From Halomicronema hongdechloris C2206 (lineage in GTDB: Bacteria; Cyanobacteriota; Cyanobacteriia; Phormidesmidales; Phormidesmidaceae), in assembly GCF_002075285.3 (NCBI RefSeq), contig NZ_CP021983.2:4410001-4442000 (forward strand): a stretch of DNA of 32,000 bases, written 5' to 3'. Below the pieces are notes generated by a model. That model worked only from the letters and a program-made list of their open reading frames with translations. It searched no databases and was not told where the DNA came from. Made by a program: the position numbers and the translations under genes. Below are positions 1,359 through 31,905 of this stretch, one piece after another; position 1 is the stretch's first letter; each line of letters opens with the position of its first letter.

Positions 1359-1479
1359 AGCCATGTTCATCATGTCGCCCATATTCACATCACTATCGCC
1401 ATCGGCATCCAAAAAGGCATTGAGAACAGGGTTATCCCCTTGATTCCCCTGGAACGAATCGCACACGTTGCCTATCACC

Positions 1480-1550
1480 CGCCGCAGATAACCTCGAATA
1501 CCCAACCGTCACCTTTTAATGGTCGGATGCATGGGTGTTGTTATACGGCG
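1480..1550 (-). other. attC-like imperfect hairpin no. 1 (recombination-site candidate)
   Basis: The arms CGCCGCAGATAACC...ACCCAACCG (left) and GTCGGATGCATGGGTGTTGTTATACGGCG (right) pair with bulges. It lies 4 nt 3' of the YgiT-type gene stop and shares its right-arm sequence with the sites at 3917-3945 and 6320-6347. Confidence 0.35.
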
Positions 1551-1554
1551 TTGG

Positions 1555-1797
1555 CTATGCTGATTCTAGATGAGTAACCGGAATTTGTTCGGTTCTCTCA
1601 GGAGCTTTCGCTCCAGTTGCAACTGCATGAACTGCATGAAGAATATTGGCTGAGTAGTACCGATTGCCACAAGTATCACAAACACCGATCGTTACATCTT
1701 CGAGGATGACAAATCCATCTCTATGTTTGAATGCCTCACGTTTGACAGTTCGGGGTTGAACAGTTCCTTCGCAATACTCACATTTGTATCCGTACAT
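1555..1797 (-). CDS. YgiT-type zinc-finger protein (MqsA-like antitoxin N-domain)
   Basis: 80 aa beginning MYGYKCEYCEG. Two CxxC pairs (CEYC ... CDTC) have the spacing typical of YgiT zinc fingers. It starts 3 nt after the upstream DUF4258 gene. Confidence 0.8.
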   Translation of the reverse strand: MYGYKCEYCEGTVQPRTVKREAFKHRDGFVILEDVTIGVCDTCGNRYYSANILHAVHAVATGAKAPERTEQIPVTHLESA

Positions 1798-1800
1798 ACG

Positions 1801-2040
1801 TTAGCCCTCAAGTTCAGTGACTTCATAAACCGTGATGATTAAATAGCGTCCGGTACTAGCGAAACGTCCAACCATGCCAACAGGTGTTCGTTGATCTAGC
1901 GCATTTCCCACTACTACATATTTTGTGCCTCTGGGGTCATCCTTTTCAACCTGGATAACTCGACCGTTCAAAACGGCCTCTTCCACATCTAAAATAGTCA
2001 GCATATCCTCAGCCATCTCTTCCATTGCGTGGGCTGACAC
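1801..2040 (-). CDS. DUF4258-type toxin, partner of the YgiT antitoxin; the 5' end abuts a MITE
   Basis: SAHAMEEMAEDML..VEEAVLNG..I...DDPRG resembles the DUF4258 'HA...M..R.I' N-terminus, but only about 2 residues precede it. The only start in the track is a GTG at 2040 that overlaps the MITE end, with internal ATGs at 2025 and 2016. Confidence 0.7.
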   Translation of the reverse strand: MSAHAMEEMAEDMLTILDVEEAVLNGRVIQVEKDDPRGTKYVVVGNALDQRTPVGMVGRFASTGRYLIITVYEVTELEG

Positions 2041-2159
2041 TCATTGACTGACAAAACCGGCTAGAACCCAGACTATCCAAAGGGTCAGGGAACCTGCCCC
2101 CTACAGCATCCGAAATCTGGTAAGGGCGCGGTTTCCGCGCCCAATGCAGAATCTTTTGT
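2040..2159. mobile_element. MITE copy 1, right terminal inverted repeat truncated
   Basis: About 120 bp, nearly identical (2 substitutions seen) to 27219-27340. It carries the left TIR TTGACTGACAAAA and the internal hairpin GGGCGCGG-TTT-CCGCGCCC. The right end stops at CTTTTGT without CAGTCAA. Confidence 0.7.
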
Positions 2160-2407
2160 TCCTCAAGAACGGCTCGAAGATCATCTATTTCCTTCACAGA
2201 ACGAGCTGCCAGGCAATCGAGTATCCACTTTTGTTGCGCCTGAACGTATCCCCATATAAAAGTCAGAATGATAGTCAAAACAATAAGAGCTCCGATCACA
2301 GGCAGGTTTGGTGTAGTCTTTTAGTATAATACTCCAACAACAGCCATAATTACAGATTCAAAAACAAGGAAGAAGTTTAGACGCTCATTGAAATAGTGTT
2401 CTCATGC

Positions 2408-3693
2408 GGGGACCTCGATTAATCAGTTTTCTTTAGCTAATGGCGTCTCATTTGAGACCGTCAAGGTGACTCAAAGAGAGTCCGAGACATTCCACCGAAA
2501 AAAGCTTCCCATTTTGACAAAAAAATAGGGTTGGAAGACCACGTTTAAGTCGATTTCCCGGCTTTAGGTCCGATTATCTTGCCAGTTCAGCCGATGCAGC
2601 ACGTTGGGTTTCGAGACACACAAACCGCTTCAGGTTATACACCAGATTTTTCAGACCTAGCTGGGTCTGGGCACGGGCTAACCCGATGCTGCGCACCACC
2701 TTGCCACCCATGCTGGTGACGACATCTCCGAAGATGTGCTCCACTCTGGCACGGGTTTTGGAGCGCTCTCGATTCGCGGTTTTCTGGGCCTCGCTTAAGG
2801 GGCGATTGCGATAGGCCCGTTCATTTATATGCGGCTCAAACCCTATCAATTTCAGCACCTCGACAATCAGCACGGAGAGATACGCACTATCGGCCCAAAG
2901 TCCATCGCCGCTATTATCCGCATCGAGCAACTCGCCCAAGACCTGCGAGTCATGGACCGACGCATCGGTGACGCTGTAACGGCGAATGAGCTTAAAGCCG
3001 GCATCACTATTGATGTGGTTTTTGTAGCCGTAGTGGGACGTTCCATTTTTCTTCGTCCATCGGGCGTCAACATCTTTTTGCGCGAGCTGATGAGGGGTCT
3101 CTTGCCACTCAACGGGAACCTCACCCTGCTTGAGGGTTTGGTTCTCCTCACGGGTGTTGCGTTGTTTGGGAACTGGAATCAAGGTCGCATCCACAATTTG
3201 CCCATCCTTGGCGGCATAGCCTGCCCCTTGCAGATAGGCTCCAAACTGCTCGAACAACGCCTCCACCAAGCCGTGCTGCTGCAACTGTTCTCGGAAGAGC
3301 CACACCGTCGTTGCATCCGGGACTCTATCCTCAAGCCCCAAACCGAGAAATTGCATGAAGGACAGTCGGTCGTTGACCTGATATTCCAGTTCGTCATCGC
3401 TGATGTTGTATAGCTTTTGCAGCACCAGCATCTTGAAGAGTAACAGGACATCGGTGGGGTTACGACCGGCCTGGCTTTTGCGCGGTTTCTCTCGAATCTG
3501 CATCAGAATCGGACGAAAGGTCTCCCACGGCACCAGTTGATTCAACCGATTCAGTACCGCCTTCTTTTGCTCCAGTTTTTGCTGGCGCTCTTCGATATCC
3601 CAGAATCCCTGCTGTCCCATGGCCTGCGTGCTTCAACAAAACCGACCTTATGATCTCATACTGAGATCGCTCTGGCTATTTTTCGAGGTGCCC
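2408..3693 (-). mobile_element. IS5-family insertion sequence, apparently intact
   Basis: Imperfect terminal inverted repeats GGGGACCTCGATTAATCAG (2408-2426) and the reverse complement of 3675-3693, GGGCACCTCGAAAAATAGC. A 4-bp direct repeat ATGC flanks it at 2404-2407 and 3694-3697. It contains a single transposase ORF. Confidence 0.85.
2574..3620 (-). CDS. IS5-family DDE transposase
   Basis: 348 aa. The N-terminal DUF772-like segment is LLFKMLVLQKLYNISDDELEYQVNDRLSFMQFLGL. The DDE region is IVDATLI ... WADSAY ... RARVEHIFG. Confidence 0.92.
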   Translation of the reverse strand: MGQQGFWDIEERQQKLEQKKAVLNRLNQLVPWETFRPILMQIREKPRKSQAGRNPTDVLLLFKMLVLQKLYNISDDELEYQVNDRLSFMQFLGLGLEDRVPDATTVWLFREQLQQHGLVEALFEQFGAYLQGAGYAAKDGQIVDATLIPVPKQRNTREENQTLKQGEVPVEWQETPHQLAQKDVDARWTKKNGTSHYGYKNHINSDAGFKLIRRYSVTDASVHDSQVLGELLDADNSGDGLWADSAYLSVLIVEVLKLIGFEPHINERAYRNRPLSEAQKTANRERSKTRARVEHIFGDVVTSMGGKVVRSIGLARAQTQLGLKNLVYNLKRFVCLETQRAASAELAR

Positions 3694-3853
3694 ATGCAAA
3701 ATATGCTCAAGCAAGCTGTAGGACTGCTTATTATTATGTTCATCAGACATTACCAATAACCTCAAGACACTATATCAATAGTAACTTCAAAAGATTTTAA
3801 CCCCTTATCACTAAAAAATAATCTTCAAGCACTGCCTTACCGATAAGTGGAGT

Positions 3854-3945
3854 CGTATAACGTTCCGGTTGAGCGGCTACCGATAGCATATGCCATAATA
3901 CCGACCAACTTTGTTAGTCCGCTCCAATCGGGTTGTTATGCGGCG
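3854..3945 (-). other. attC-like imperfect hairpin no. 2
   Basis: Left arm CGTATAACGTTCCGGTTGAGCGG and right arm GTCCGCTCCAATCGGGTTGTTATGCGGCG, with ATAAC/GTTAT and GAGCGG/CCGCTC pairing and bulges between. It lies 24 nt 3' of the PIN gene stop. Confidence 0.35.
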
Positions 3946-3969
3946 CTTTTTCAAGCATTGAGTTGCTTA

Positions 3970-4383
3970 TCACTGAACTTGAATGACATCAAAAGTCCCC
4001 TGATTTTCAATGCGATAGAACAGGAAATCTGAATCGAGTGTGAGAATTCGCCGGAAATTCGTCCTCTCAGCTACCAGCACCAATGACGCATCAGCCAAGT
4101 CCATTGGTCGATCTTGATACTGCTCCATCAGCTCTAATAAACGGGAGTAGTATTGCTCTTGAATTTCGTAAATCACCAAAAGCTTATCTAAGAGCAGTTG
4201 CCCTAGCTGTTTTTGCATCGTCCACCCGCCTCGATGAAGAGCTAAATACATAGCTTCTGTGAAACAAGACCAAGTTGTGAGAAGAGGTGAAGCAATCCGC
4301 CTTACAGCATTTCGGTAAGCTGAGTGTTTTGGCTGAGTGCGATCAACTAAACAAAGCAAAACTCCTGCATCACAAAGAATCAC
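3970..4383 (-). CDS. PIN-domain toxin (VapC-like)
   Basis: 137 aa with the acidic quartet in PIN order: ILCDAG, FTEAMY, LADASLV, TLDSDF. The GTG start overlaps the upstream stop (GTGA). Confidence 0.85.
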   Translation of the reverse strand: MILCDAGVLLCLVDRTQPKHSAYRNAVRRIASPLLTTWSCFTEAMYLALHRGGWTMQKQLGQLLLDKLLVIYEIQEQYYSRLLELMEQYQDRPMDLADASLVLVAERTNFRRILTLDSDFLFYRIENQGTFDVIQVQ

Positions 4384-4640
4384 AATTCTAGACCCTGCTG
4401 CCGATATTTGGATACCAGATGTTGTTGATAGTCGCTAACTGAGTCGGTTGACGTGACTTCTAGATGATCAACAGACTCGAACCACCTTGTCCACGCTTGA
4501 GCCAACTCATCTTTACGATCATCAGTGATAGTGCTATGCCGACGCCGATACATCAAAAAATCTATAAAATCATTGACTTGTTGAAGAAGCGAATCAGGTA
4601 GTTGCTGCAATTTAGCAATAGCAGTTTCACGAATCGTCAT
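4380..4640 (-). CDS. VapB-like antitoxin (DUF2281-type)
   Basis: MTIRETAIAKLQQLPDSLLQQVNDFIDFLMYR matches the '..LP...L.EV.DFI.FL' signature. The ATG at 4640 overlaps the CHAT-TPR stop (ATGA). The track ORF begins further upstream at 4658. Confidence 0.65.
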   Translation of the reverse strand: MTIRETAIAKLQQLPDSLLQQVNDFIDFLMYRRRHSTITDDRKDELAQAWTRWFESVDHLEVTSTDSVSDYQQHLVSKYRQQGLEL

Positions 4641-6142
4641 GAGAGTAACCACCTCCAAAATCCTTTACGGTCTTCTTCAATCTGTCTTTCAATTTGTTTT
4701 ACTTTCTCAAGGGCACTACAGTAACTTTCAATATCTTTCTTCCGTTTGTACAAAGATGCAGCCTCTTGATAGTCTGCAATAGCGCTCTGCCTATTCTGGT
4801 TTTCATTCAGAAAATAGTTCTTCGTCATTCCTCGAATTTCATAGGCAAAGGCAAAGCTAGGCTTGAGACAAATAACCTCAGTAAAATCTGCTATCGCACC
4901 TTGAAAATCCTGTACTTGAAACTTTGCTATTCCACGCGCCAAATGAGCCTTTGTACAGGCCGGTTGAAGACGAATAGCCTCATCAAGATCTTCGATAGCA
5001 CTCTGATGATCTTCTAATCTATCTTTAGTTCTTCCACGATCACAGAAATTACAAGAATAATCTGGTCGAAGACGAATCGCTTCATTGAAATCTTCGATAG
5101 CTTCTTGGTATTTCCTTAAATGATGCTTTACTTTTCCACGGCAGTTGTAAGCGTGGAAGTTATTTGGTTGAAGATGAATTGCTTCACTGAAATCTAGAAT
5201 CGCGCCTCGAAAATCTCGGCAATCTTTCAATTGATCTCTTGCCTTTCCTCGATCTATGTAGAGGTCTGGATTATTTGGTTGAAAACTAATAGCTGTTGTA
5301 TAGTCACCAATCGCGCCCTCGTAATCCTCCAACCGACTTTTTGCCAATCCACAAGCTCTGTAGGCTTTGGCATAATCTGGCTGGAGACAAATAGCTTCTT
5401 GAAAATCTATAATCGCCCCCTGATAATTGCCTGCCTTGTATTTCTCTTTTCCCCGTTCAAAAAAGTCTTCCGCAGTCAATGATTCTGTAGTTTTGGGAAG
5501 TTCCTCAGCAGCTTGCTTAAAAGGGAAAGTTCTCAAATCGAGATTTTGATTCTCTACATCTTCATGCCCAATTTTTTTTGCGAAAAGGACTGGAGTTAAG
5601 TGTTCTGGAATGCCCTCTAGCTGAATCGCATTACAACCCAGTTCATAGGCAAATTCAACTGATTCTCCAGCTCCTAATGCAGTGTAGAAACCGACAGAAA
5701 ATTCAATTGCTGCACGATCACCAATTGCCTGATTCATCCCAATCACGTAATCAATGTGTTGTGCGATCGCCTCAGCTTGAAACTCTGAGTAGCAGGCATT
5801 CAGAACAACGCACTCTACATGATTAGAAAAAAGTTTGAATAAGTTAGCTAACGCATCTGAGCCAATCAGCTTAAGATTTCCTGCCACATCCTCAAAAGCC
5901 AAACCATCTTTCCCTGAACCATGACCTGTGAAATGAACGACCTGTGGCTTAAAGTCCAGCATCGCTTGTTGAATATCTCTTGTACGAGTGGCTCCAGTCG
6001 AGTTAATCGGTACTTTGCCATATCCAGCTAGACGGAGACGCTCCTTAATTTCTCTCTCTTCTTCTTGCAGACGCAAGCTTCCTGTTCCCTTGGGGTTCGC
6101 AGCCAGCAGTAAGATCGATTTTGAGACGACGCCGTCATTCAT
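4637..6142 (-). CDS. CHAT (caspase-like) protease domain fused to about 7 TPR repeats
   Basis: 501 aa. The N-terminal ~190 aa carry a His/Cys dyad context, VVHFTGHGS and VECVVLNACYS, followed by YVIGM..IGD..AIEFSVGFY. The C-terminal part has repeated ..AI.DF.EAI.L.P.. TPR units. Confidence 0.85.
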   Translation of the reverse strand: MNDGVVSKSILLLAANPKGTGSLRLQEEEREIKERLRLAGYGKVPINSTGATRTRDIQQAMLDFKPQVVHFTGHGSGKDGLAFEDVAGNLKLIGSDALANLFKLFSNHVECVVLNACYSEFQAEAIAQHIDYVIGMNQAIGDRAAIEFSVGFYTALGAGESVEFAYELGCNAIQLEGIPEHLTPVLFAKKIGHEDVENQNLDLRTFPFKQAAEELPKTTESLTAEDFFERGKEKYKAGNYQGAIIDFQEAICLQPDYAKAYRACGLAKSRLEDYEGAIGDYTTAISFQPNNPDLYIDRGKARDQLKDCRDFRGAILDFSEAIHLQPNNFHAYNCRGKVKHHLRKYQEAIEDFNEAIRLRPDYSCNFCDRGRTKDRLEDHQSAIEDLDEAIRLQPACTKAHLARGIAKFQVQDFQGAIADFTEVICLKPSFAFAYEIRGMTKNYFLNENQNRQSAIADYQEAASLYKRKKDIESYCSALEKVKQIERQIEEDRKGFWRWLLS

Positions 6143-6257
6143 GAGAGTTTGGCAGGGCAGAGGGCGAATTGACTCTACTCAATTGTATGCCAGACGGAGG
6201 AATTATCCTTTGGCACCGTGAGAACATTGAAACAGCATCCCCACAGGTAGCCTCGAG

Positions 6258-6347
6258 CCGCATAACGGCTGAGTTCAGCGGCGGTAGAAACATTGAAACG
6301 AAGCAAAAGTTGCCAGTCTGTCCGATGCACGCAAGGGTTAGCTGGCG
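6258..6347 (-). other. attC-like imperfect hairpin no. 3 (weakest of the three)
   Basis: Left arm CCGCATAACGGCTGAGTTCAGCGG and right arm GTCCGATGCACGCAAGGGTTAGCTGGCG. It lies 51 nt 3' of the globin-fragment stop. Pairing is poorer, and the loop carries one copy of the 11-bp direct repeat AACATTGAAAC (6223-6233 and 6289-6299). Confidence 0.25.
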
Positions 6348-6398
6348 ATCATTGAAGCAATGGAAGTGATCGAGTAAGAAAATGTTGAGCTTCCTCTG

Positions 6399-6737
6399 TC
6401 AACCCAATCTACAAGATTGGCGATTGTACTCAATCTCTACCCCCATTTGTTGTGCTCGCTTCACATGGGCAGGAATCATGACTGAACAGATTAGTGACCA
6501 AAGCTCAACCCATGCTGCTTTAGTATCATCATTAAACCGATCCCCTAGCATTCTTTCAAAAGTTGTAACAATAGCTAGCCCCACTGGACTATAGTGCTTA
6601 GCCTTTGTTTGATACTGAACATGACGCTCTGCTAAATCCTGTAAAATTGGGATGAGTTCTGGATCGATTTCTAGACGTTCTTCTCCCAGCATCTCATCGA
6701 ATGTGCCTGGTAATAAGCTTAAAGCAGCATCAACCAT
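6399..6737 (-). pseudogene. 5'-truncated globin-domain gene (E-H helices only)
   Basis: MVDAALSLL..(F-helix) ILQDLAERHVQY .. KHYSPVGLAIVTTFERMLGDRF..AAWVELWSLICSVMI aligns by eye with the C-terminal two thirds of bacterial globins. The roughly 50 N-terminal residues (A-C helices) are absent. The ORF upstream of 6737 is non-globin read-through. Confidence 0.6.
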
Positions 6738-7086
6738 TTGTGTTTCCCTCCTGGAAGCGGTCAGTGGATCCACGCTCTCAGGTGGTAGGGCGTCATCATG
6801 TCTATGAGCAATCGGTGCAGCGGGCCGTGAAGCAGGCGATTCAACCAGCTGGTATTGCTAAGCATGGTGGGTGCCACACGTTTCGTCATAGTTTTGCCAC
6901 CCACCTGCTGGAAGATGGTTACGATATTCGCACCGTGCAGGAGCTGCTGGGGCATAAAGATGTGAAAACCACCATGATTTATACCAAAGGCATTTCAGAG
7001 CACGAGACAACATTGTCAGGTCTGAAATGCCTTCGAATGGGCTGAATCGGGGTGGGCAAGGCGTGCGGAGTCCGCTAGATAGCTAA
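6737..7086 (+). pseudogene. intI: integron-type tyrosine recombinase (IntI) remnant: 5'-truncated, with a frame break near the catalytic Tyr
   Basis: [74 protein letters not shown]. After a 56-bp hairpin-containing insertion the reading continues in another frame as [14 protein letters not shown]-stop (7042-7086). The DPRS..V.RHH segment is the IntI-specific insertion absent from XerC/D. Confidence 0.78.
6989..7031. repeat. perfect 11-bp-stem hairpin inside the intI remnant
   Basis: GGCATTTCAGA (6989-6999) and TCTGAAATGCC (7021-7031) are separated by a 21-nt loop. The hairpin sits exactly where the HV codons of MIYTHVLNRGG are expected. Confidence 0.6.
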
Positions 7087-9033: not shown

Positions 9034-9663
9034 TCAATACGACAGACTGGCCGCCTGATGGAGATACGCCTCGCTCCCCAACTGCTGCAAGATAAAGTCC
9101 GCCACATCGGCCCGTGAAATTTTGAGCTGCGAACTCTTGTCCGTACCAGGAAAGCCGTGGCGATACTGCCCGGTGCGGGGTCCCGCCACAAATGCCCCCG
9201 GACGCACAATCGTCCAGTCCAAATGACTGTTTTGTACGGTCTGTTCTTGGCGCTCATGATCGGCAAACACGTTTCGCAAAATCAGGCCAAACATGACGGT
9301 CTTCCAGTAAACGTTGAGGCTGCCCCAGCTTTCCCCTGCCCCTAGGGTGGTTTGGCAAATGAACCGGCGAATGCCGGATTGCTCCATGGCCTGAACGATG
9401 TGTCGGGTGCCTTGCGATCGCACCGTGCCCGTGAGCTTCTGCCCCGACCCGAGGATACAGATCACCGCATCCTGCCCCTGGACCGCCTGTTGCACCGTCG
9501 GCAGATCCATCACATCGCCCTGAAATACCGCGAGGTTGGGATGCTGCACCGCGAGCTTATCAGGGGTGCGGGCAAACGCGGTGACCCTATGGCCCTGTGC
9601 CAAGGCCTGGTCCACCAGCTGCCGACCCACCCCGCCCGTGGCGCCAAAAATTAGTAGTTTCAT
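9034..9663 (-). CDS. NAD(P)H-binding oxidoreductase (atypical SDR, flavin-reductase/BVR-B-like)
   Basis: MKLLIFGATGGVGRQLVDQAL Rossmann start with ATG at 9663. The track ORF extends 10 codons further upstream. Confidence 0.88.
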   Translation of the reverse strand: MKLLIFGATGGVGRQLVDQALAQGHRVTAFARTPDKLAVQHPNLAVFQGDVMDLPTVQQAVQGQDAVICILGSGQKLTGTVRSQGTRHIVQAMEQSGIRRFICQTTLGAGESWGSLNVYWKTVMFGLILRNVFADHERQEQTVQNSHLDWTIVRPGAFVAGPRTGQYRHGFPGTDKSSQLKISRADVADFILQQLGSEAYLHQAASLSY

Positions 9664-12165: not shown

Positions 12166-12630
12166 TCAGTTACTGGAATGGGGTGAAACGTCGACTATGG
12201 GATTGCGTTGATTGCCGCGGAAAATAGCGATGCGTTCCTGGTCGGCACTGGTGTAGTCCGGGTCAACGTAGATAAACACGCGCCGAATGAGGTCGCCTCG
12301 AAACTCGAAAACGTTGCAGAAACGCCCCTCCGAGATCAGGCCATCGGGCCAGCGTACGTCATTTCGGGTAACTCCACGTTCGGTACCTTCCACCACAACG
12401 GAGTCGCCCGCAACGATGTAGTTGAAGTTCTCAATGTCGTGCTCAAGTCGCTCCAGATGGCGACCCATAATCTCCGAAAACTGGATCATGTCGGCTTTGC
12501 CGTAGCCGAAGCCAAATTTGGGAAAGAACATCTGAACGTCTTCAGTGAACAGATCGAAGACGGTGGCGTCTTTGGCATCAATTTTTCTGAAATAAGCTTC
12601 GACAATCCTGATTCGTTCTTTCGGATTCAT
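12166..12630 (-). CDS. NTF2-like / SnoaL-family protein
   Basis: 154 aa. IVEAYFRKIDAKD...LFTEDV...VAGDSVVVEGTERG...FEFRGDLIRRVFIYVD is the cone-fold pattern of SnoaL-like proteins. Confidence 0.78.
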   Translation of the reverse strand: MNPKERIRIVEAYFRKIDAKDATVFDLFTEDVQMFFPKFGFGYGKADMIQFSEIMGRHLERLEHDIENFNYIVAGDSVVVEGTERGVTRNDVRWPDGLISEGRFCNVFEFRGDLIRRVFIYVDPDYTSADQERIAIFRGNQRNPIVDVSPHSSN

Positions 12631-12749
12631 GTCAGTATTTGTTCAACCTCTTCTAGGCTTGACAAAGTGAAAATGGTCTATAAGATGTGTGATTTTATCA
12701 TCAAAAACTCGCTTTCCAGAAGCATTAAAAATTTGAATCTCTGGATTGT

Positions 12750-13283
12750 TTAGAAATGAATTTCCTGTGCATTATTTTCACTCTCGCCAATGGCCTTTGC
12801 CACCGCAAAGCCATCTTCAAAGATTCTGTAACGGGTTATTAAGCTACCTTGCACGGAAAACTCGAATGCGAATTCACTTTTAATTATCTTGCCTGTGCTT
12901 TTTACCAGTGTTTCTAGTGCGCCTAGTGCGATCCCTTGATGGCCTTCGACGACAATCGAGCGAATGTCGAACTTAATCGGTTCAGTGTATGAACGCAGCT
13001 CTTGAATAAAATCTACAACGCCACTACGTCCATGTCTGCGACCAATCCACGGGACAATGTCAACAGCACCAGGGATATAAAAGTCGACATCCTCGCTGAA
13101 TAAAGATGCAATCAATTCTGGCTCCGCATCTGCATAAACCATCTTGAAATATTGGCTCACTACACTTCGAGTCATTGTCTGTTGCACCGTTGCATTCTTC
13201 AGTAATTCATTTCGAGACGTTGGAGCATTGCCTAACTCAGTTGAGAACGTGTCCGAAAGTCTTTGGTTCTTGAAAAATTCCAC
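12750..13283 (-). CDS. NTF2-like / SnoaL-family protein in a low-GC segment; start uncertain
   Basis: VVSQYFKMVYADAEPELIASLFSEDVDFYIPG...VVEGHQGIALG...FEFSVQGSLITRYRIFED. The track start is a GTG at 13283, with an internal ATG at 13175. Confidence 0.65.
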   Translation of the reverse strand: MEFFKNQRLSDTFSTELGNAPTSRNELLKNATVQQTMTRSVVSQYFKMVYADAEPELIASLFSEDVDFYIPGAVDIVPWIGRRHGRSGVVDFIQELRSYTEPIKFDIRSIVVEGHQGIALGALETLVKSTGKIIKSEFAFEFSVQGSLITRYRIFEDGFAVAKAIGESENNAQEIHF

Positions 13284-13335
13284 CTCAGGGCTCCTCTTGA
13301 TTTTGGAATTGACATGTATAGCAATCCCAGTTGAT

Positions 13336-13872
13336 TTATGAACAAGGTGAATATTCTTCTATTTTAGAAAAATCGAACTTTTGATGATCTATAAAGAACT
13401 CAAACAGATACTTTACAGCGGGGAAAGAACGACACAACCTCCAAAATCTTCTCAATGAATTTTTGGCTTGTAACCAAACATCTTCCACTGGATTTTGTTC
13501 TGGTGAATTGGGTGCAAATAGAATACATTTGAATTGCCATTCTGTCTCTTCCTTCCCATGATTGACTGTAGCTAAAAAATCTTTGATCTCTTGTGACTTA
13601 TGATAACTAGCGCCATCCCAAATTAATGCGATTTGCTTCCCAGGATTTTGTTCCTGCAAGTACTTCATAAAAGCAACTGTATTCTCTCCATTCCCTTTCT
13701 CGTAAGGATGCAAAATAAATTCTTTTGTTTGATAGTTTAATGCGCCATAATATGTTTGCCTGATTCTCTCGTTTGTAATAGGGATTTCGATTCGCATATC
13801 TGTCTTGCCCCAGACATATCCACAAACATCACCCCAAAGGAGATGACACTCATCCAAAAAAAGTACAATCAA
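13336..13872 (-). CDS. IS630 transposase, DDE catalytic part (orfB frame)
   Basis: LFLDECHLLWGD ... LIWDGASYHKS ... FAPNSPEQNPVEDVW is the DDE (D,D,35E-type) signature. The frame stays open upstream as far as the A9 run at 13909-13917. Confidence 0.88.
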   Translation of the reverse strand: MIVLFLDECHLLWGDVCGYVWGKTDMRIEIPITNERIRQTYYGALNYQTKEFILHPYEKGNGENTVAFMKYLQEQNPGKQIALIWDGASYHKSQEIKDFLATVNHGKEETEWQFKCILFAPNSPEQNPVEDVWLQAKNSLRRFWRLCRSFPAVKYLFEFFIDHQKFDFSKIEEYSPCS

Positions 13873-14453
13873 TTCCCCAGACTCAATTTTGAACTGGTTT
13901 TGACGGATAAATCCTTGGATTTCTTCTCTTTTTTTTTGACTAGAGCTGGATCAGATTTCGGGTTGGTTTTTTGAGATTTCTTCCAACTAATACCTGCTTC
14001 CGAAAAAAGTGTATAGTAGCTTTGCTTAGACTTGTAAATCACATCATAATGTTCATCTAAATATGAAACTAATTCATCAAAGTTCCAGTAGTTTCTGGTT
14101 CTCAGCCACGAGATAATTTCTGTACGATCATCTGGGGTTAGGTAACTTTTTGATCCTTGGTAGCCGAGTTTAATACCTTCAATGCCTTGTGCTTCGAATC
14201 TGTTCTTCCAATATGTAATAAAAGACTTGTTTATTCCCAGAAATTTGGTAATCTTAAAATATGGCTCACCCTCCAATGCCATTTTTACAGCCAATGCTCG
14301 CTTAAGCTCTCTTGAATCAGGATTACTACTTATAAAGTCTGATAGAATAGCACGATTATCTACTTTTTGTTGGTGTTCTAATTGAAAACTATTCATGAGT
14401 ACAACTGTATTGACAGCTTGATGATATTTATATACTACCCATTCTAAACTCAT
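13869..14453 (-). CDS. IS630 transposase, N-terminal HTH part (orfA frame)
   Basis: Paired HTH / winged-helix-like segments (ALAVKMALEGEPYFKITKFLGINKSFITYWKNRFEAQGIEGI). It ends KKKEKKSK... and then stops 40 nt after the A9 run. Confidence 0.85.
   Translation of the reverse strand: MSLEWVVYKYHQAVNTVVLMNSFQLEHQQKVDNRAILSDFISSNPDSRELKRALAVKMALEGEPYFKITKFLGINKSFITYWKNRFEAQGIEGIKLGYQGSKSYLTPDDRTEIISWLRTRNYWNFDELVSYLDEHYDVIYKSKQSYYTLFSEAGISWKKSQKTNPKSDPALVKKKEKKSKDLSVKTSSKLSLGN
13909..13917 (-). promoter_or_regulatory. A9 slippery run: candidate -1 frameshift or transcriptional slippage site joining orfA to orfB
   Basis: On the minus strand, GTC AAA AAA AAA GAG. Shifting -1 gives KKREEIQGFIRQNQFKIESGELIVLFLDECH, which reads straight into the DDE domain. 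Confidence 0.55.
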
Positions 14454-14462
14454 TTAGGGTTG

Positions 14463-15326
14463 CTATATCAGTGATGGCATCAAATTCAGGGCAGCATCCG
14501 GATGCAAGGGTTGGCTCATCAAAATTGAAAGGCTAATAGTAGCGATCAGGAGAACAGCCACTCTTTGAATGAGGGCATCGGCACCCAAGACCAGTCGCAG
14601 CGGTGGATCGGGGTGATCGACTACTTGCATCATGGCAGCGGCAGCCTTTTGAGGATCGCCCGGTTGCTGACCATGCATCTGACGTAGCCAGTGCATCATC
14701 TGACCGCTGGTTTCGGCATAATCCTGGATTGTCTGTGCCGGCGAGCGGAGTACGCCATTGAAGGCCGTGCGGAACGCGCCGGGCTCGACAATCGTGACGC
14801 GAATGCCCAGCGGGGCAACTTCCTGGGCCAACGCTTCTGACCATCCCTCCAGGGCAAATTTTGACGCACCGTAAATGCCGGCACCAGGAAAGCCCACAAA
14901 GCCGCCACTAGAGGAGATATTTAGAATGTGACCGGAGCGCTGGCGACGCAGATGGGGCAGCAGGGCACACGTCACCTCCAACGCCCCATAGACGTTCGTT
15001 TCAAATTGTTGTCTGACAGCTGGAGCGGTCACTTCCTCCACCGCTCCGAACACACCGTATCCAGCATTGTTCACCAGCACGTCGACGTGGCCAAAGGCTT
15101 GCAGAGCGTGCATGACAGCCGTCTGTATGGCAAAGGGTTGGGTGACATCCAGGGGCAGCGCCAGGAGGCGATCGCCATACTGCTGCACTAAATCGGTCAG
15201 ACGTTCCGGCTTACGGGCGGTAGCAACAACGCTGTCGCCAAGTTCCAGTACTGTTTCGGTTAGCGCGCGGCCCAACCCTCTGGAACTGCCGGTGATGAAC
15301 CAAATTCTTGGTTGTTGTGTAGTCAT
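14463..15326 (-). CDS. classical short-chain dehydrogenase/reductase (SDR)
   Basis: WFITGSSRGLG (TGxxxGxG), NNAG, and YGASKFALE (YxxxK). The ATG at 15326 is preceded by GGAGAT. The stop TAG (14463-14465) lies in the last 3 nt of the IS630 terminus. Confidence 0.88.
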   Translation of the reverse strand: MTTQQPRIWFITGSSRGLGRALTETVLELGDSVVATARKPERLTDLVQQYGDRLLALPLDVTQPFAIQTAVMHALQAFGHVDVLVNNAGYGVFGAVEEVTAPAVRQQFETNVYGALEVTCALLPHLRRQRSGHILNISSSGGFVGFPGAGIYGASKFALEGWSEALAQEVAPLGIRVTIVEPGAFRTAFNGVLRSPAQTIQDYAETSGQMMHWLRQMHGQQPGDPQKAAAAMMQVVDHPDPPLRLVLGADALIQRVAVLLIATISLSILMSQPLHPDAALNLMPSLI

Positions 15327-27138: not shown

Positions 27139-27218
27139 TTTTAGGGTTTGAGTGAGGGCATGCCAGGCTCTTACTCTCATCATGGGTTGAGCAAAAGGGA
27201 AACAAGCCCCTCACTTCC

Positions 27219-27349
27219 CTCATTGACTGACAAAACTTGCTAGAACCCAGACTATCCAAAGGGTCAGGGAACCTGCCCCCTACAGCATCCGAAATCTGGT
27301 AAGGGCGCGGTTTCCGCGCCCAATGCAGAATCTTTTGTCAGTCAACCAG
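27219..27349. mobile_element. MITE copy 2 (complete), same family as 2040-2159
   Basis: 131 bp. The 17-bp imperfect TIRs are CTCATTGACTGACAAAA and the reverse complement CTGGTTGACTGACAAAA, with a perfect 13-bp core at 27223-27235 / 27333-27345. It is flanked by the 9-bp direct repeat CTCACTTCC (27210-27218 and 27350-27358). Confidence 0.78.
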
Positions 27350-27564: not shown

Positions 27565-27638
27565 GGGACTGTAGTTCAACCGGTTAGAGCACCGCCCTGT
27601 CACGGCGGAAGTTGCGGGTTCGAATCCCGTCAGTCCCG
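27565..27638 (+). tRNA. tRNA-Asp (anticodon GTC)
   Basis: A 74-nt cloverleaf folded by hand: acceptor GGGACTG/CAGTCCC, D stem GTTC/GAGC, anticodon stem CCGCC/GGCGG with loop CTGTCAC, and T arm GCGGG-TTCGAAT-CCCGT. The discriminator is G, and no CCA is encoded. Confidence 0.93.
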
Positions 27639-27920
27639 TCTTCCTATGCACAGACCCCAACTTCCGCCTTAGCGGCGACCGTTGCGGGTAAGCCTGCGGC
27701 TGGCTACGCCTACGAATCCCGTCAGTCCCGTCTTCCTATGCACAGACCCCAACTTCCGCCTTAGCGGCGACCGTTGCGGGTAAGCCTGCGGCTGGCTACG
27801 CCTACGAATCCCGTCAGTCCCGTCTTCCTATGCACAGACCCCAACTTCCGCCTTAGCGGCGACCGTTGCGGGTAAGCCTGCGGCTGGCTACGCCTACGAA
27901 TCCCGTCAGTCCCGTCTTCC
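27621..27920 (+). repeat. perfect tandem array, 92-bp unit x3 plus a 24-bp partial, beginning inside the tRNA-Asp T-loop
   Basis: Units start at 27621, 27713 and 27805, with a partial at 27897. All three read identically by eye. Each unit ends with the tRNA 3' segment CGAATCCCGTCAGTCCCG. Confidence 0.95.
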
Positions 27921-28474: not shown

Positions 28475-29299
28475 ATGGCTAAGCAGCGCCTGGATGCCCT
28501 GTTGGTGGAACGGGGGCTATGTGACTCGCGGCAGATGGCCCAGCGGTTGATTCGGGCTGGAGCGGTGAGGGTCAACCAGCAGCTGGTGGATAAACCCGGC
28601 CATGCGATCGCAGCCAATGCAGATATCCAGGTGAAGCGCCGAGCACCCTATGTGTCTCGTGGCGGCGAAAAACTCGCCAAAGCCCTGGCCGACTTCGAGA
28701 TTTCCGTTTGCGATCGCATCTGCCTAGACGGCGGCATTTCCACCGGCGGCTTCAGCGATTGTCTACTGCAGGCAGGCGCCCGCTTGGTCTATGGCATCGA
28801 CGTCGGCTATGGCCAGGTAGCCTGGAAGCTACGGCAAGACCCGCGCCTGGTGCTGCGGGAGCGCACCAATCTGCGCCATCTCACCCCCGAGACCCTCTAT
28901 GGGCCAGACCGCTCTTGGCCCGATCTAGGCGTCATGGATGTCTCCTTTATCTCCCTAACCAAGGTGCTGCCCGCCTTCTGGCGATTGCTGCAGCCACCTA
29001 GAGAAGTGGTGCTACTGGTGAAACCCCAGTTTGAAGTGGGCCGGGAACAGGTGGGGAAAAAGGGCGTGGTTCGCGATGCCAAGGTCCAGGCCCAGGCCAT
29101 CTGGACCGTGTGGCAAACGGCCCAAGCGTTGGGCTGGCACTATCGCGGCCTCACCTGGTCGGCCATGGTGGGACCGGCCGGAAATATCGAGTATTTGCTA
29201 TGGCTGTCGGCAGATCCTGGCGTATCCCTGGAAGGGCCAGAGTTAGCGATGATCCAAGATCGCACCCAAACCGCTCAGACGACTCTATTGAAGTCGTAG
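28475..29299 (+). CDS. tlyA: TlyA-family rRNA 2'-O-methyltransferase (S4 domain plus FtsJ-like domain)
   Basis: RLDALLVERGL..SR..A..LI.AG.V.VN (S4 domain), YVSRGG.KL..AL..F, and the SAM motif CLD.G.STGGF.DCLLQ.GA..VYG.DVGYGQ. Confidence 0.9.
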   Translation: MAKQRLDALLVERGLCDSRQMAQRLIRAGAVRVNQQLVDKPGHAIAANADIQVKRRAPYVSRGGEKLAKALADFEISVCDRICLDGGISTGGFSDCLLQAGARLVYGIDVGYGQVAWKLRQDPRLVLRERTNLRHLTPETLYGPDRSWPDLGVMDVSFISLTKVLPAFWRLLQPPREVVLLVKPQFEVGREQVGKKGVVRDAKVQAQAIWTVWQTAQALGWHYRGLTWSAMVGPAGNIEYLLWLSADPGVSLEGPELAMIQDRTQTAQTTLLKS

Positions 29300-29388
29300 G
29301 GACGGAGCAGATTCATAGTGAGAAGAGAGGACTGGAGTCAAGGCATTAAATGCCCTGCCTTACTGGCGATGAAGATTTACTGAAGGTC

Positions 29389-29633
29389 TCTGCATAATCC
29401 CCCACAGCAGACCTATTATACAGAGGAAGATCCGGCTAATCACCCTATTTGGGAGTGTTATCAAGGCATTGATGGGCATAACATCCCGATTTGGCGATAT
29501 AGCCCGAACAAGATCTGCATAACACCCTATTTTGGGTGTTTATGCCGAAAATTTTCAGCCTAACTACTTTTAGCAGAGATGATATTCGACTTTAAGCCTG
29601 CCTAGTCACCTCGACTGGGGGTGTTATGCAGAA
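29389..29633. repeat. cluster of palindromic repeats with core CTGCATAACACCC / GGGTGTTATGCAG
   Basis: Copies are TCTGCATAATCCCCC (29389-), TCACCCTATTTGGGAGTGTTAT (~29441-), GCATAACATCCC (~29476-), the near-complete hairpin CTGCATAACACCC-TATTTT-GGGTGTTTATGCC (29514-29545) and GGGGGTGTTATGCAGA (29618-29633). The outermost copies are inverted relative to each other. Confidence 0.6.
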
Positions 29634-29896
29634 TAGAGGAGAGCAAAGCAGGCTAAACAATAGTTAGCTTCCAAGAGATCAGATCCCCTCTTTAAAATCC
29701 TTGATTAAAACATGCTCAATTAGTACAGTTGCATTTTACTTGAAGCAAAGATATAGAAGGTAGACAGTCGTTAGTATTTGGGTAGCAGTGTGCAGCAGCT
29801 ACAGACTCACAGCAGTATAATGTACTATTCACATGCTCAATGTCAGGCTGTTTAATTCTAGAGTCGCTTAGTTAAGACCGAAATGGAGTACTTTAG

Positions 29897-31207
29897 GTGC
29901 TTACTCAAATCGAATTAAAAAATTTCAAGAGCTACAGATCAGGCACTTTGCAACTTGGACGGTTGACCGTACTCATCGGGGCTAATGCTTCTGGAAAGAG
30001 CAACGTAATTGAAGCGCTACGCTTGCTAGCAAGAATTGCTGAGGGAGAACGACTTAGCCTTTTGGGTGGGCCTTATAAGCAAGACGAAACAATTTTTAGG
30101 GGAGGAGTAGAGAATCTTGGCTATCGGGGTTCAAAATCTTTCGGGCTTTCTTGTGTAACAACAGAGCCAGAGTGGAAAGATCTCTCAATCGATTTAAGTC
30201 TTGGAGGAGATGGAGATCTTCATGTTACCAAGGAAAAAATTACAAGTCATACTTCAACAGTTCCTTTGTATGAAATTACAAGCGCACCTCAAGGGGCTGG
30301 AAGTGACGTATTTGTTACTTATAACAATTTTGCCAGAGGTGGGAAAAAACCTAGCATAGTATGCAGCAGTCATATGGCAATTTTTACACAACTTTTGAGT
30401 GATATCCGCTTCCGTCCAGAGAACACTAAAAGTCGAAAAATAATTCCTAAGGTTGCTGAACGATATGTTCAATGGTTAAGTAGCATCGTATTTCTTGAGC
30501 CTGAGCCAAGCTCAATGCGCTCTTATGGTCATAAAGTTGATAAGGTACTCAAAGAGCATGGTGAAAACCTTTCAGGGGTAATCTATAACTTATGTCTTAA
30601 CCCAAATGTCAAAAGTTCGGTTCTGGATTTCGTTCAAAGTTTGCCTGAACAGGATATTGAAAATATCGATTTCATAGAAACACCTCGTGATGAGGTTATG
30701 CTACAGCTAACTGAAACCTTTGGCGGTGCATCGACTACCTATGATGCTTCCATACTTTCAGATGGAACTTTACGCGTGCTCTCTATTGCTGCAGCAATGC
30801 TTTCTGCACCTGAGCAAAGTTTAGTTGTTATTGAAGAAATCGATAACGGCGTACATCCTAGCAGAGCAGCAGATTTGTTAGAGCGGATTTCTAGTATTGC
30901 AAAGAACCGTGATTTACGGGTTCTAATTAGCAGCCATAATCCCGCACTTCTTGATGCCCTGCCTGATGAAGCCATTCCTGAAACTGTATTTTGCTATCGA
31001 AGTCCTCAAGATGGATCAAGTCAGTTAGTTAGATTGCAGGACATTCCCGACTATCCCGAACTCATTGCTCAGGGGTCTGTTGGGCACCTCATGACTCGCG
31101 GACTATTAGAACGGTTTGTTAAGCAACATCCCGGAACAGAGCAGAAAAAGAAGAAAGCAATGGAGTGGCTAGCTTCTCTCGCTGTGGTAGGGGAACCGAG
31201 AGAATGA
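29897..31207 (+). CDS. ABC/SMC-like AAA ATPase (AAA_15/21-type, as in PARIS AriA / Septu PtuA-class proteins)
   Basis: 436 aa with GTG start and GGAG 8 nt upstream. IELKNFKSY..., Walker A GANASGKSN, signature-like LSDGTLRVL, Walker B LVVIEEIDNGVHP and H-loop LISSHNP. Confidence 0.85.
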   Translation: MLTQIELKNFKSYRSGTLQLGRLTVLIGANASGKSNVIEALRLLARIAEGERLSLLGGPYKQDETIFRGGVENLGYRGSKSFGLSCVTTEPEWKDLSIDLSLGGDGDLHVTKEKITSHTSTVPLYEITSAPQGAGSDVFVTYNNFARGGKKPSIVCSSHMAIFTQLLSDIRFRPENTKSRKIIPKVAERYVQWLSSIVFLEPEPSSMRSYGHKVDKVLKEHGENLSGVIYNLCLNPNVKSSVLDFVQSLPEQDIENIDFIETPRDEVMLQLTETFGGASTTYDASILSDGTLRVLSIAAAMLSAPEQSLVVIEEIDNGVHPSRAADLLERISSIAKNRDLRVLISSHNPALLDALPDEAIPETVFCYRSPQDGSSQLVRLQDIPDYPELIAQGSVGHLMTRGLLERFVKQHPGTEQKKKKAMEWLASLAVVGEPRE

Positions 31208-31659
31208 AAGCAGTTGCAATTGTTGATACATCTATATTCTGCAATGTTCTCGATATTCCTCATATGAATAGTGAACGGACTCAGGTAATGCAAAAGTTGA
31301 AAGATTTACTTGAGGAAAGTACTAATCTTCTTCTACCTATGGCTGCCGTCTATGAAACAGGGAATCATATTGCTCAACTCAGTGATGGTGGAAACCGGCG
31401 TCAATTTGCTGAAGTTTTCATTGAGCAAGTCAAGAAAGCGATAAAAGGGGAAGCACCTTGGCAAGTTATGCAGCTGCCAGATATGGAGGAGGTTGGAGAA
31501 TGGCTAAGTAACTTTCCTGATTCAGCAATGCGTGGCGCAGGTATGGGAGACTTATCAATAATCAAAGAGTGGGAGAAGACGATTAGGATAACGCCCAATC
31601 ACCGTATTTTTATATGGTCTTTAGATGGCGATCTTCAGGGATATGATCATATTCCTTGA
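31204..31659 (+). CDS. PIN-like putative nuclease, translationally coupled to the ATPase
   Basis: The ATG at 31204 overlaps the ATPase TGA (ATGA). Acidic residues fall in PIN order: VAIVDTSIF, AAVYETGNH, GMGDLSII, IWSLDGDL. The fold assignment is an inference from motif order only. Confidence 0.55.
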   Translation: MKAVAIVDTSIFCNVLDIPHMNSERTQVMQKLKDLLEESTNLLLPMAAVYETGNHIAQLSDGGNRRQFAEVFIEQVKKAIKGEAPWQVMQLPDMEEVGEWLSNFPDSAMRGAGMGDLSIIKEWEKTIRITPNHRIFIWSLDGDLQGYDHIP

Positions 31660-31905
31660 TCCTAATAATTAAGCTTTAGCTAGCAGTGTTGACTTTTATG
31701 CAAAAATCTGTTCCCTTTCGAGAAAATCTTATTGATTCTAGGCTTTCGCAAAAAGCTGACAATTCAAATGCAGCGGACAGTTTTGAGCCGTTGCTGCTGA
31801 GTTTAAGGTTGTCTGCTGCCGATGATTTGAGCCGTTCCCTCTCCAGGCAAGCCTTTGACTTGAGAAAGTCGCATCAATGCGTCGCAACCTCCTCGGAACC
31901 TAACG

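Follow-up and report, generated by a model that had tools for sequence, protein, structure and literature searches.

In the window analysed here, a 32,000-nucleotide stretch of the genome of the cyanobacterium Halomicronema hongdechloris C2206 (contig NZ_CP021983.2; position 1 is the first letter of the stretch), we read the segment from 1458 to 7086 as the remnant, apparently inert, of a chromosomal integron, and we put the probability of this reading at roughly 0.9. Integron integrases capture circular gene cassettes by recombining the folded bottom strand of an attC site with the attI site, and the cassettes line up head to tail, on the other strand from the integrase gene (intI). What survives in the segment is the 3' end of an intI gene facing three minus-strand attC sites, and the attC model matches, the identity of the integrase and the variable synteny of relatives are all consistent with the integron relic that had been proposed in an earlier note, written from the sequence alone.

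The integrase is represented by a single fragment at one end of the segment:

6737–7086, plus strand: intI remnant, corresponding to residues 228–326 of an integron integrase, with its stop codon at 7084–7086

Joined, the two pieces of this remnant (6737–6985 and 7042–7086) encode 97 residues, or 99 with a displaced His-Val pair restored. The IntI model TIGR02249 (NCBIfam) matches the fragment at 158.9 bits (E 1.9e-46, profile positions 216–314 of 315), a score below the cut-off of 265 for the sole reason that the protein is reduced to 99 of about 320 residues, and it outscores the models of XerC, XerD and XerA, which reach about 80 bits each. The Xer alignments start only at residue 20, and the first 20 residues of the fragment are therefore specific to integron integrases; the additional segment that is peculiar to IntI is present. 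Judged by these profiles, the fragment is best placed with IntI and not with XerC/D, as had been claimed for it. When the window was searched by tblastn with the intact 326-residue IntI of contig L010, which belongs to a genome of the Leptolyngbyaceae, residues 228–310 were found at 75% identity, followed by the last 25 residues, and residues 1–227 had no match anywhere in the 32 kb. The fragment thus amounts to 30% of the gene, and it is itself interrupted, since the frame break seen earlier near its end is a stretch of 56 nt (6986–7041) that stands in for the codons His-Val, between ...MIYT and LNRGG..., and shifts the frame ahead of the final 14 codons. Inside these 56 nt lies a perfect 13-nt inverted repeat (AAGGCATTTCAGA, arms 6987–6999 and 7021–7033) without a second copy in the window. 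The annotated 93-residue "Integrase/recombinase" of H. hongdechloris C2206 is identical to this broken frame, aberrant tail included.

Among the best 120 of 7995 relatives of the fragment, the closest (87–91% identity) adjoin attC arrays, and have their intI genes broken up into two frames, in LEGE 07170 (contig L001) and in two metagenome contigs:

L001, 9410–10378: split intI gene, within the 87–91% identity range
L002, 9631–10456: split intI gene, in the same range
L003, 1–994: split intI gene, in the same range

The integrase clade nearest the fragment seems to be in decay in several genomes.

Recognition of the attC sites was based on covariance models. The first of these, R1, was constructed on 13 attC sites that belong to other integrons of cyanobacteria, with none from the window; we chose the seeds ourselves from arrays adjoining intI in, for example, Microcystis, Nodosilinea, filamentous cyanobacterium CCP2 and other cyanobacterial genomes or metagenome-assembled genomes. 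Typical attC sites are also found in LEGE 07170, in a minus-strand array upstream of intI. The hand-drawn structure of R1 has 75.6% of its cells paired and 15 pairs changed on both sides, and none of 500 shuffles equalled it. Applied to 1.02 Mb of sequence surrounding 83 intI genes of many phyla, R1 gave 58 hits at E <= 1e-3; 54 of them are upstream of intI and on the cassette strand, with regular arrays in Pseudoxanthomonas and Blastocatellia among them. These 58 sites, from several phyla, made up a broader model, R2. A search of both strands of the whole 32 kb with the full R1 model yielded three minus-strand sites in the 1458–7086 region and one plus-strand site at 31.8 kb, and R2 recovered the same four and nothing else:

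1458–1549, minus strand: attC1 match, 36.0 bits with R1 (E 1e-6), 23.6 bits with R2 (E 7e-4)
3852–3944, minus strand: attC2 match, 56.8 bits with R1 (E 2e-11), 48.8 bits with R2
6257–6346, minus strand: attC3 match, 39.3 bits with R1 (E 2e-7), 37.5 bits with R2
31759–31835, plus strand: attC4 match, 45.6 bits with R1 (E 7e-9), 29.6 bits with R2 (E 3e-5)

The best unrelated match in the window reaches 11.7 bits (R1) or 9.7 bits (R2), and neither model finds a further site above 12 bits within the long cassettes, near 2400 or near 29.5 kb. Rfam at its gathering thresholds returns tRNA only, with no family at the four attC sites. Our own scans for AAC...GTT hairpin patterns and duplexes were far too unspecific and served solely for spotting candidate seeds.

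The four window sites share the consensus xCTAAC-AAxTCAxxT[G]CAGCGG[A]C ... GGTTATCTxCCGCCGCTGA ... CCGTTAGxC, which also adjoins intI in Microcystis, Nodosilinea, Leptolyngbyaceae and other cyanobacteria, and which we regard as a cyanobacterial attC family. This comparison was made with the rebuilt models (13, then 58 sites) and not with the taxon-specific covariance model for cyanobacterial attC sites that has been published (Ghaly et al. 2021, PMC8352920), a model whose existence shows cyanobacterial integrons to be less neglected than the earlier note implied. The box structure of the sites is as follows:

1458–1549, minus strand: attC1, at the distal end of the array; R'' GTATAAC at 1540–1546, L'' TGCATCCGACC, L' GGCGGGTGA (1475–1483)
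3852–3944, minus strand: attC2, the best preserved; R'' GCATAAC at 3935–3941, R' GTTATAC at 3855–3861, crossover G3861|T3860
6257–6346, minus strand: attC3; R'' AGCTAAC at 6337–6343, R' GTTATGC at 6260–6266, crossover G6266|T6265, two stem mismatches
31754–31840, plus strand: attC4; mutated R'' AGCTGAC at 31754–31760, R' GTTCCCT at 31834–31840, one stem mismatch

Both the R'' box ending in AAC and the R' box beginning with GTT are present in attC2 and attC3. At the first site, the R' box is degenerate, reading CGTGTGC (about 1461–1467) where the family has CGTTAGxC, and the 3' arm, placed by homology, extends over 1458–1485. The hairpin that had been drawn there coincides with a real site; its ATAAC arm (1481–1493), however, corresponds to the loop motif GAGGTTATCTGC-CGCCGCTGA and not to R', and aligned to the family consensus the minus-strand sequence GAGGTTATCTGCGGCGGGTGA (about 1475–1495) is the conserved loop-plus-L' segment. 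The extrahelical bases that the earlier note had suggested looking for are found in attC2, where the R''-L'' arm holds two of them with a 6-bp stem in between (top strand TT[G]GAGCGG[A]C against GCCGCTCAA; T and C on the bottom strand), and the corresponding 6-bp stem of attC1, attC3 and attC4 has one or two mismatches. Spacing of 6 bp between the extrahelical bases is required, and the first of them is usually G (PMC5027507). Extrahelical T and C with a 6-bp stem were seen in attC sites of L018, L038, L024 and L048 as well as at 3852–3944 in the window; C instead of G as the first extrahelical base would imply a recognition rule specific to the integrases of this clade.

In folding energy, the four window sites range from -7.9 to -12.2 kcal/mol as DNA, with z-scores between +0.8 and -0.9 (attC2, -12.2 kcal/mol and z -0.9; the others, -7.9 to -12.0 kcal/mol and z -0.1 to +0.8), and the canonical bulged hairpin is the minimum-energy fold for the bottom strand of attC2 only. 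Five attC sites of relatives, taken as controls, give -16.5 to -20.6 kcal/mol; four of them have z-scores of -3 to -5 and the canonical hairpin, and the fifth, from L001, has z -1.4. Folding of single sequences is informative only against these sites. The claim of three related hairpins thus holds in so far as all three match the attC models, and fails with regard to stability, which alone does not exceed chance, and to the arm assigned at the first site. We suggest that the weak folds reflect drift after integrase loss. The sites of the array lie 8, 28 and 55 nt past stop codons, with neighbours 2.3 kb apart and 390 bp between attC3 and the intI fragment; no T-run was found at the attC sites, and the terminator scan passes them over.

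A further line of evidence comes from the way in which cassettes are made. In an integrated array, the bases that follow the G|TT crossover (TTRRRY...) are part of the next cassette and are complementary to the R'' of that same cassette, since the cassette was once a circle. In the window, the R'' of attC2 (GCCGCATAAC) is complementary to the R' of attC3 (GTTATGCGGC) at 7/7 outer bases, against 5/7 for its own R', and the R'' of attC1 is complementary at 6/7 positions to the start of its own cassette, against 3/7 for its own R'. For attC4, the R'' pairs at 5/7 with the junction of an attI-like region at the other end of the window, described below, and at 3/7 with its own R'. Arrays of relatives show this shift too, in 24 of 33 pairs of adjacent sites (means 5.15 vs 3.70). 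As judged from these comparisons, each surviving cassette start complements its own R'', as expected of integrase-made cassettes.

All called genes from 1555 to 6773 lie on the minus strand, opposite to the intI fragment, in agreement with the geometry described earlier, and they are distributed over three cassette units, of which the most distal has received two insertions:

6399–6737, minus strand: truncated globin gene, in the cassette that ends in attC3; abuts the intI fragment at about 6737
3861–6265, minus strand: cassette A, 2405 bp; CHAT-TPR gene (6142–4637), VapB/DUF2281 gene (4640–4380) and VapC/PIN gene (4383–3970), followed by attC2
1462–3860, minus strand: cassette B; short, degenerate membrane-protein open reading frame (2299–2009), DUF4258 toxin gene (2040–1801) and gene for a YgiT/MqsA-type zinc-finger antitoxin (1797–1555)
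2408–3693, minus strand: IS5-family element of 1286 bp within cassette B; NF033581, 296 bits
2038–2158, minus strand: repeat of about 121 bp resembling a miniature inverted-repeat transposable element (MITE), between the small open reading frame and the DUF4258 gene; second copy at about 27197–27316

The globin gene marks the edge of the array. Its Pfam Globin match covers profile positions 59–117 of 117 only, and its residues 27–91 align to residues 70–134 of a 139-residue globin, with about 43 N-terminal residues missing. The globin is broken exactly where intI begins, and the junction at about 6737 is therefore without the 5' two thirds of intI, the attI site, any promoter and the stretch in which the globin cassette would have had its 5' end. 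No attI-like sequence was found between attC3 and the intI fragment, the junction being direct.

Cassette A has a guanine-plus-cytosine (GC) content of 40–45%, against 52–60% in its flanks, and its genes are supported by Pfam, NCBIfam and PADLOC matches; they overlap from stop to start (ATGA) and therefore form one operon. The CHAT-TPR product is XM38_041860 (100% identical). In metagenome contig L092 (5001–7122), the order CHAT-TPR, VapB, VapC is kept at 58, 60 and 79% identity, with overlapping genes and between core genes, and the trio is therefore a conserved module and not a local accident; the CHAT-TPR homologues in L091 and L092 have no attC site behind them. The first ~190 residues of the protein, the CHAT module, are 75–89% identical in more than 100 cyanobacterial proteins (P0259–P0360), the C-terminal parts of which are unrelated to one another (TPR, kinase, Shedu SduA/DUF4263, NB-ARC, TIR, GUN4, caspase). 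On these alignments, a CHAT N-terminus with varied C-termini is the pattern predicted for a shuffled module of conflict systems.

Cassette B, the limits of which are set by attC2 and attC1, would measure about 990 bp without its two insertions, and its toxin-antitoxin pair is recognized by Pfam DUF4258 (50.2 bits) and TIGR03831 (35.1 bits). The later IS5 insertion that had been proposed is borne out by 16-nt terminal inverted repeats (2408–2423 and 3678–3693) and a 4-bp ATGC duplication (2404–2407 and 3694–3697), and the proposed MITE by its near-identical second copy (two differences in about 121 aligned columns; ends ACAAAAG...GTTTTGT). The copy in the array provides about 45 C-terminal codons of a spurious 96-residue open reading frame (2009–2299). 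Over the array as a whole, GC content is 40–46%, against 52–60% around it.

Based on these observations and on what is known of the family, we propose that an integrase once captured cassettes into the array. In the sequence as it is now, intI codon 228 is joined directly to the middle of the globin cassette at about 6737, so that the leading two thirds of intI are gone, together with attI, the promoter of the cassettes and the 5' portion of the globin unit. Later, the IS5 element and the 121-bp MITE entered the distal cassette, and a palindromic insertion the intI stump. In the lack of an integrase the attC sites would have drifted, leaving the array as what is probably a fixed gene island of low GC content, in which the toxin-antitoxin modules probably rely for expression on promoters of their own and may keep the island where it is. 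As it stands, no complete integron (intI, attI and promoter beside the array) is present; what is found is a cluster of attC sites lacking an integrase (CALIN), with three same-strand sites 2.3 kb apart and, as the only intI sequence, the 30% fragment.

Several points weigh against the reading of the segment as an integron remnant. Both R1 and R2 are surrogates for the attC model of IntegronFinder, and their E-values are rough; the seeds were self-picked, a circularity that R2 and the statistics of strand and position reduce and do not abolish. The GTT/AAC core is missing from R' in attC1 and from R'' in attC4, and in folding energy the window's attC sites do not improve on shuffled sequence. 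Cassettes of 2.2–2.4 kb with two or three genes exceed the typical cassette size. In scans for promoters and terminators, sites were no commoner than in shuffles, and no promoter was identified. As for the array being inert, the loss of intI is read within the 32-kb window only.

The fourth attC site belongs to a second remnant, oriented the other way and separated from the array by 22 kb:

29369–29665, plus strand: orphan attI region without intI; inferred crossover G29663|T29664, with repeated GGGTGTTAT / ATAACACCC motifs
29664–31834, plus strand: cassette at attI, 2171 bp; PDC-M07A gene (29897–31207) and PDC-M07B gene (31204–31659), followed by attC4

Aligned over 299 nt, the orphan attI region shares 67% identity (E 2e-17) with the 297 bp that lie immediately upstream of the intact L010 intI, with the L010 contig ending in ...AGTAGTT and the alignment in the window in ...AATAGTT. 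To its left lies a methyltransferase-like core gene, which ends at 29299, and past attC4 there is a gene of higher GC content on the opposite strand. Three proteins encoded near the right end of the window had no exact match in the protein records consulted. The cassette itself has a GC content of 41–45%, and its two genes are matched in PADLOC by PDC-M07A (644 bits; an AAA_21/AAA_15 ATPase in Pfam) and PDC-M07B (203 bits), and form a candidate anti-phage pair. As an observation on the region, motifs like ATAACACCC and GGGTGTTAT (29450–29630) also occur upstream of the intI of L008, and resemble the AGATAACACCC ends of a 72-nt near-perfect palindrome at 9288–9359 of LEGE 07170, between intI and the first cassette.

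Whether the two remnants are halves of one integron, split by rearrangements, is the alternative that deserves most attention. The left remnant keeps the 3' end of intI and the distal cassettes and has no attI, and the right one keeps attI and the first cassette and has no intI, so that the two are complementary; all four attC sites are of one family, and a distance of 22 kb with opposite orientation is what an inversion leaves. Worked through by hand, however, neither a single inversion nor a single deletion accounts for the junctions as they are, for which at least two rearrangements are needed, in addition to a separate loss of the 5' parts of intI and of the globin gene, neither of which is in the window; a link by a single inversion was rejected on this account. 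Moreover, the orphan attI resembles the region upstream of intI in L010 (z about 50–60) and, more weakly, those of five other cyanobacteria (L018, L016, L024, L022 and L015), and is unlike those of L001 and L002 (z 2–3), which match each other (z 22–24). It is the L001 and L002 integrases that are nearest the fragment (87–90% identity, vs 75% for L010). In addition, the R' of attC4 reads GTTCCCT, where GTTAGCT would be predicted for the start of the globin cassette from that cassette's attC. A common origin of the two remnants is therefore a possibility that we take seriously and consider the less probable one. Because no single inversion or deletion fits, and because the orphan attI is unlike the regions upstream of intI in L001 and L002, we favour two integrons, the second remnant probably coming from a separate one. 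The PDC-M07 cassette may still be driven from the orphan attI and the promoter region there, with the intI stump and the eroding array 22 kb away. A wider scheme, in which a staged dismantling of the platform, clade-wide decay of intI and clade-specific recognition of an extrahelical C are combined, is offered only tentatively, and we would not expect all of it to hold.

A different kind of alternative is that the array is alive, its cassettes being excised and reshuffled in trans by an intact integrase elsewhere in the 5.6-Mb genome or on a mobile element, with the attI region as a landing pad. The structure of attC2 is canonical, attI is kept over 297 nt up to its crossover, and mobilization in trans of CALIN cassettes has been proposed (PMC4889954). 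Excision needs two working sites, however, and three of the four attC sites lack the canonical fold or the core triplet; the fragment is also the only H. hongdechloris protein among the best 120 of 7995 relatives, which is weak evidence. We therefore regard a living array as improbable. That the hairpins are ordinary repeats, terminators or MITEs, the recombinase a Xer or phage remnant and their juxtaposition accidental is highly improbable, since, for all that the folds are no more stable than in shuffled sequence and the genome is rich in MITEs and insertion sequences (IS), the sites score 36–57 bits on an attC model from other genomes, occur four times in 32 kb and each after a gene end, lack a T-run and are missed by the terminator scan, the integrase fragment scores twice as high as with any Xer model, and the shift-by-one complementarity is specific to integrase-made cassettes.

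The integron remnant does not seem to have been shared by related genomes at this position. Contigs with an iaaA gene 84–90% identical to that of the window (L087–L090) are syntenic with it for the upstream helix-turn-helix gene and for iaaA itself, and past the iaaA stop codon each relative differs, having a zinc transporter (of a zinc-uptake operon), a pair of reverse-transcriptase and helix-turn-helix genes, or an ISAzo13 transposase. No attC site follows iaaA in any of them, and the array is therefore not an old fixture of the locus across the group. Flanking synteny with any of 86 integron loci was likewise not found. Three outcomes had been named in advance as speaking against an integron relic, namely no matches to an attC model, a recombinase fragment grouping with XerC/D or phage integrases, and the same hairpin-free gene order fixed across related genomes; in the surrogate form in which each was tried, none was seen. 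A chromosomal integron relic, as the earlier note had described it, is in this respect well supported, whereas the epithet "sedentary" is not demonstrated: there are three attC sites only, and the array is absent here in the nearest available relatives.

Two other features of the window were recorded along the way. Behind a tRNA-Asp gene (27565–27638) comes a perfect tandem repeat (27621–27920) with 3.3 copies of a 92-bp unit. The unit starts inside the 3' end of the tRNA gene, and the repeat looks like repeated duplication of an integration target. Another island of low GC content (35–41%), at 12500–14500, carries two NTF2/SnoaL-like genes and a transposase in two overlapping frames (13336–14453), and has no attC site.

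The region does not change the general understanding of integrons, and no paper linking H. hongdechloris with integrons was found in the collection that was searched. Its interest lies in being a well-resolved example of the death of an integron, with end-points placed to the base, IS and MITE insertions placed after the assembly of the array, and an erosion of attC sites that can be measured against relatives still with an integrase. In addition, the cassettes of this chlorophyll-f cyanobacterium carry genes of toxin-antitoxin and defence types, which fits the current view that integrons store genes for defence.

Integrons of cyanobacteria, the attC family that belongs to them and CALINs accompanied by intI pseudogenes have all been described before (PMC4889954, PMC8352920). 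CALINs are common, and an intI pseudogene lies within 10 kb of 15 out of 279 of them (Cury et al. 2016, PMC4889954). Like a CALIN as defined by IntegronFinder, the array studied here carries two or more attC sites that are spaced by less than 4 kb on one strand, no functional intI and a pseudogene of the IntI C-terminus within 10 kb, and, like a quarter of the integrons surveyed, it has an IS inside (PMC4889954). Unlike in the general description of CALINs, the end-points of the deletion are here available at base level, and the erosion of the attC sites is measurable against relatives.

Decaying chromosomal integrons with an inactivated intI are known, e.g. from Xanthomonas, as are sedentary chromosomal integrons rich in toxin-antitoxin cassettes, e.g. 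from Vibrio. The remnant resembles these types in being chromosomal, in its inactivated intI, and in that two of its three surviving units have type II toxin-antitoxin pairs; it differs from them in having only three attC sites, where a sedentary integron usually has many homogeneous ones, in that the array is not conserved at its position, and in that presence throughout the species is not demonstrated. The second remnant, for its part, resembles a SALIN, the IntegronFinder 2 category for a single attC site without an integrase, in having one attC site, one cassette and no intI. Unlike a SALIN, it is headed by a recognizable attI region that ends at the expected G|TT crossover, and it is therefore an integron platform minus its intI, and not a cassette inserted at a random GTT.

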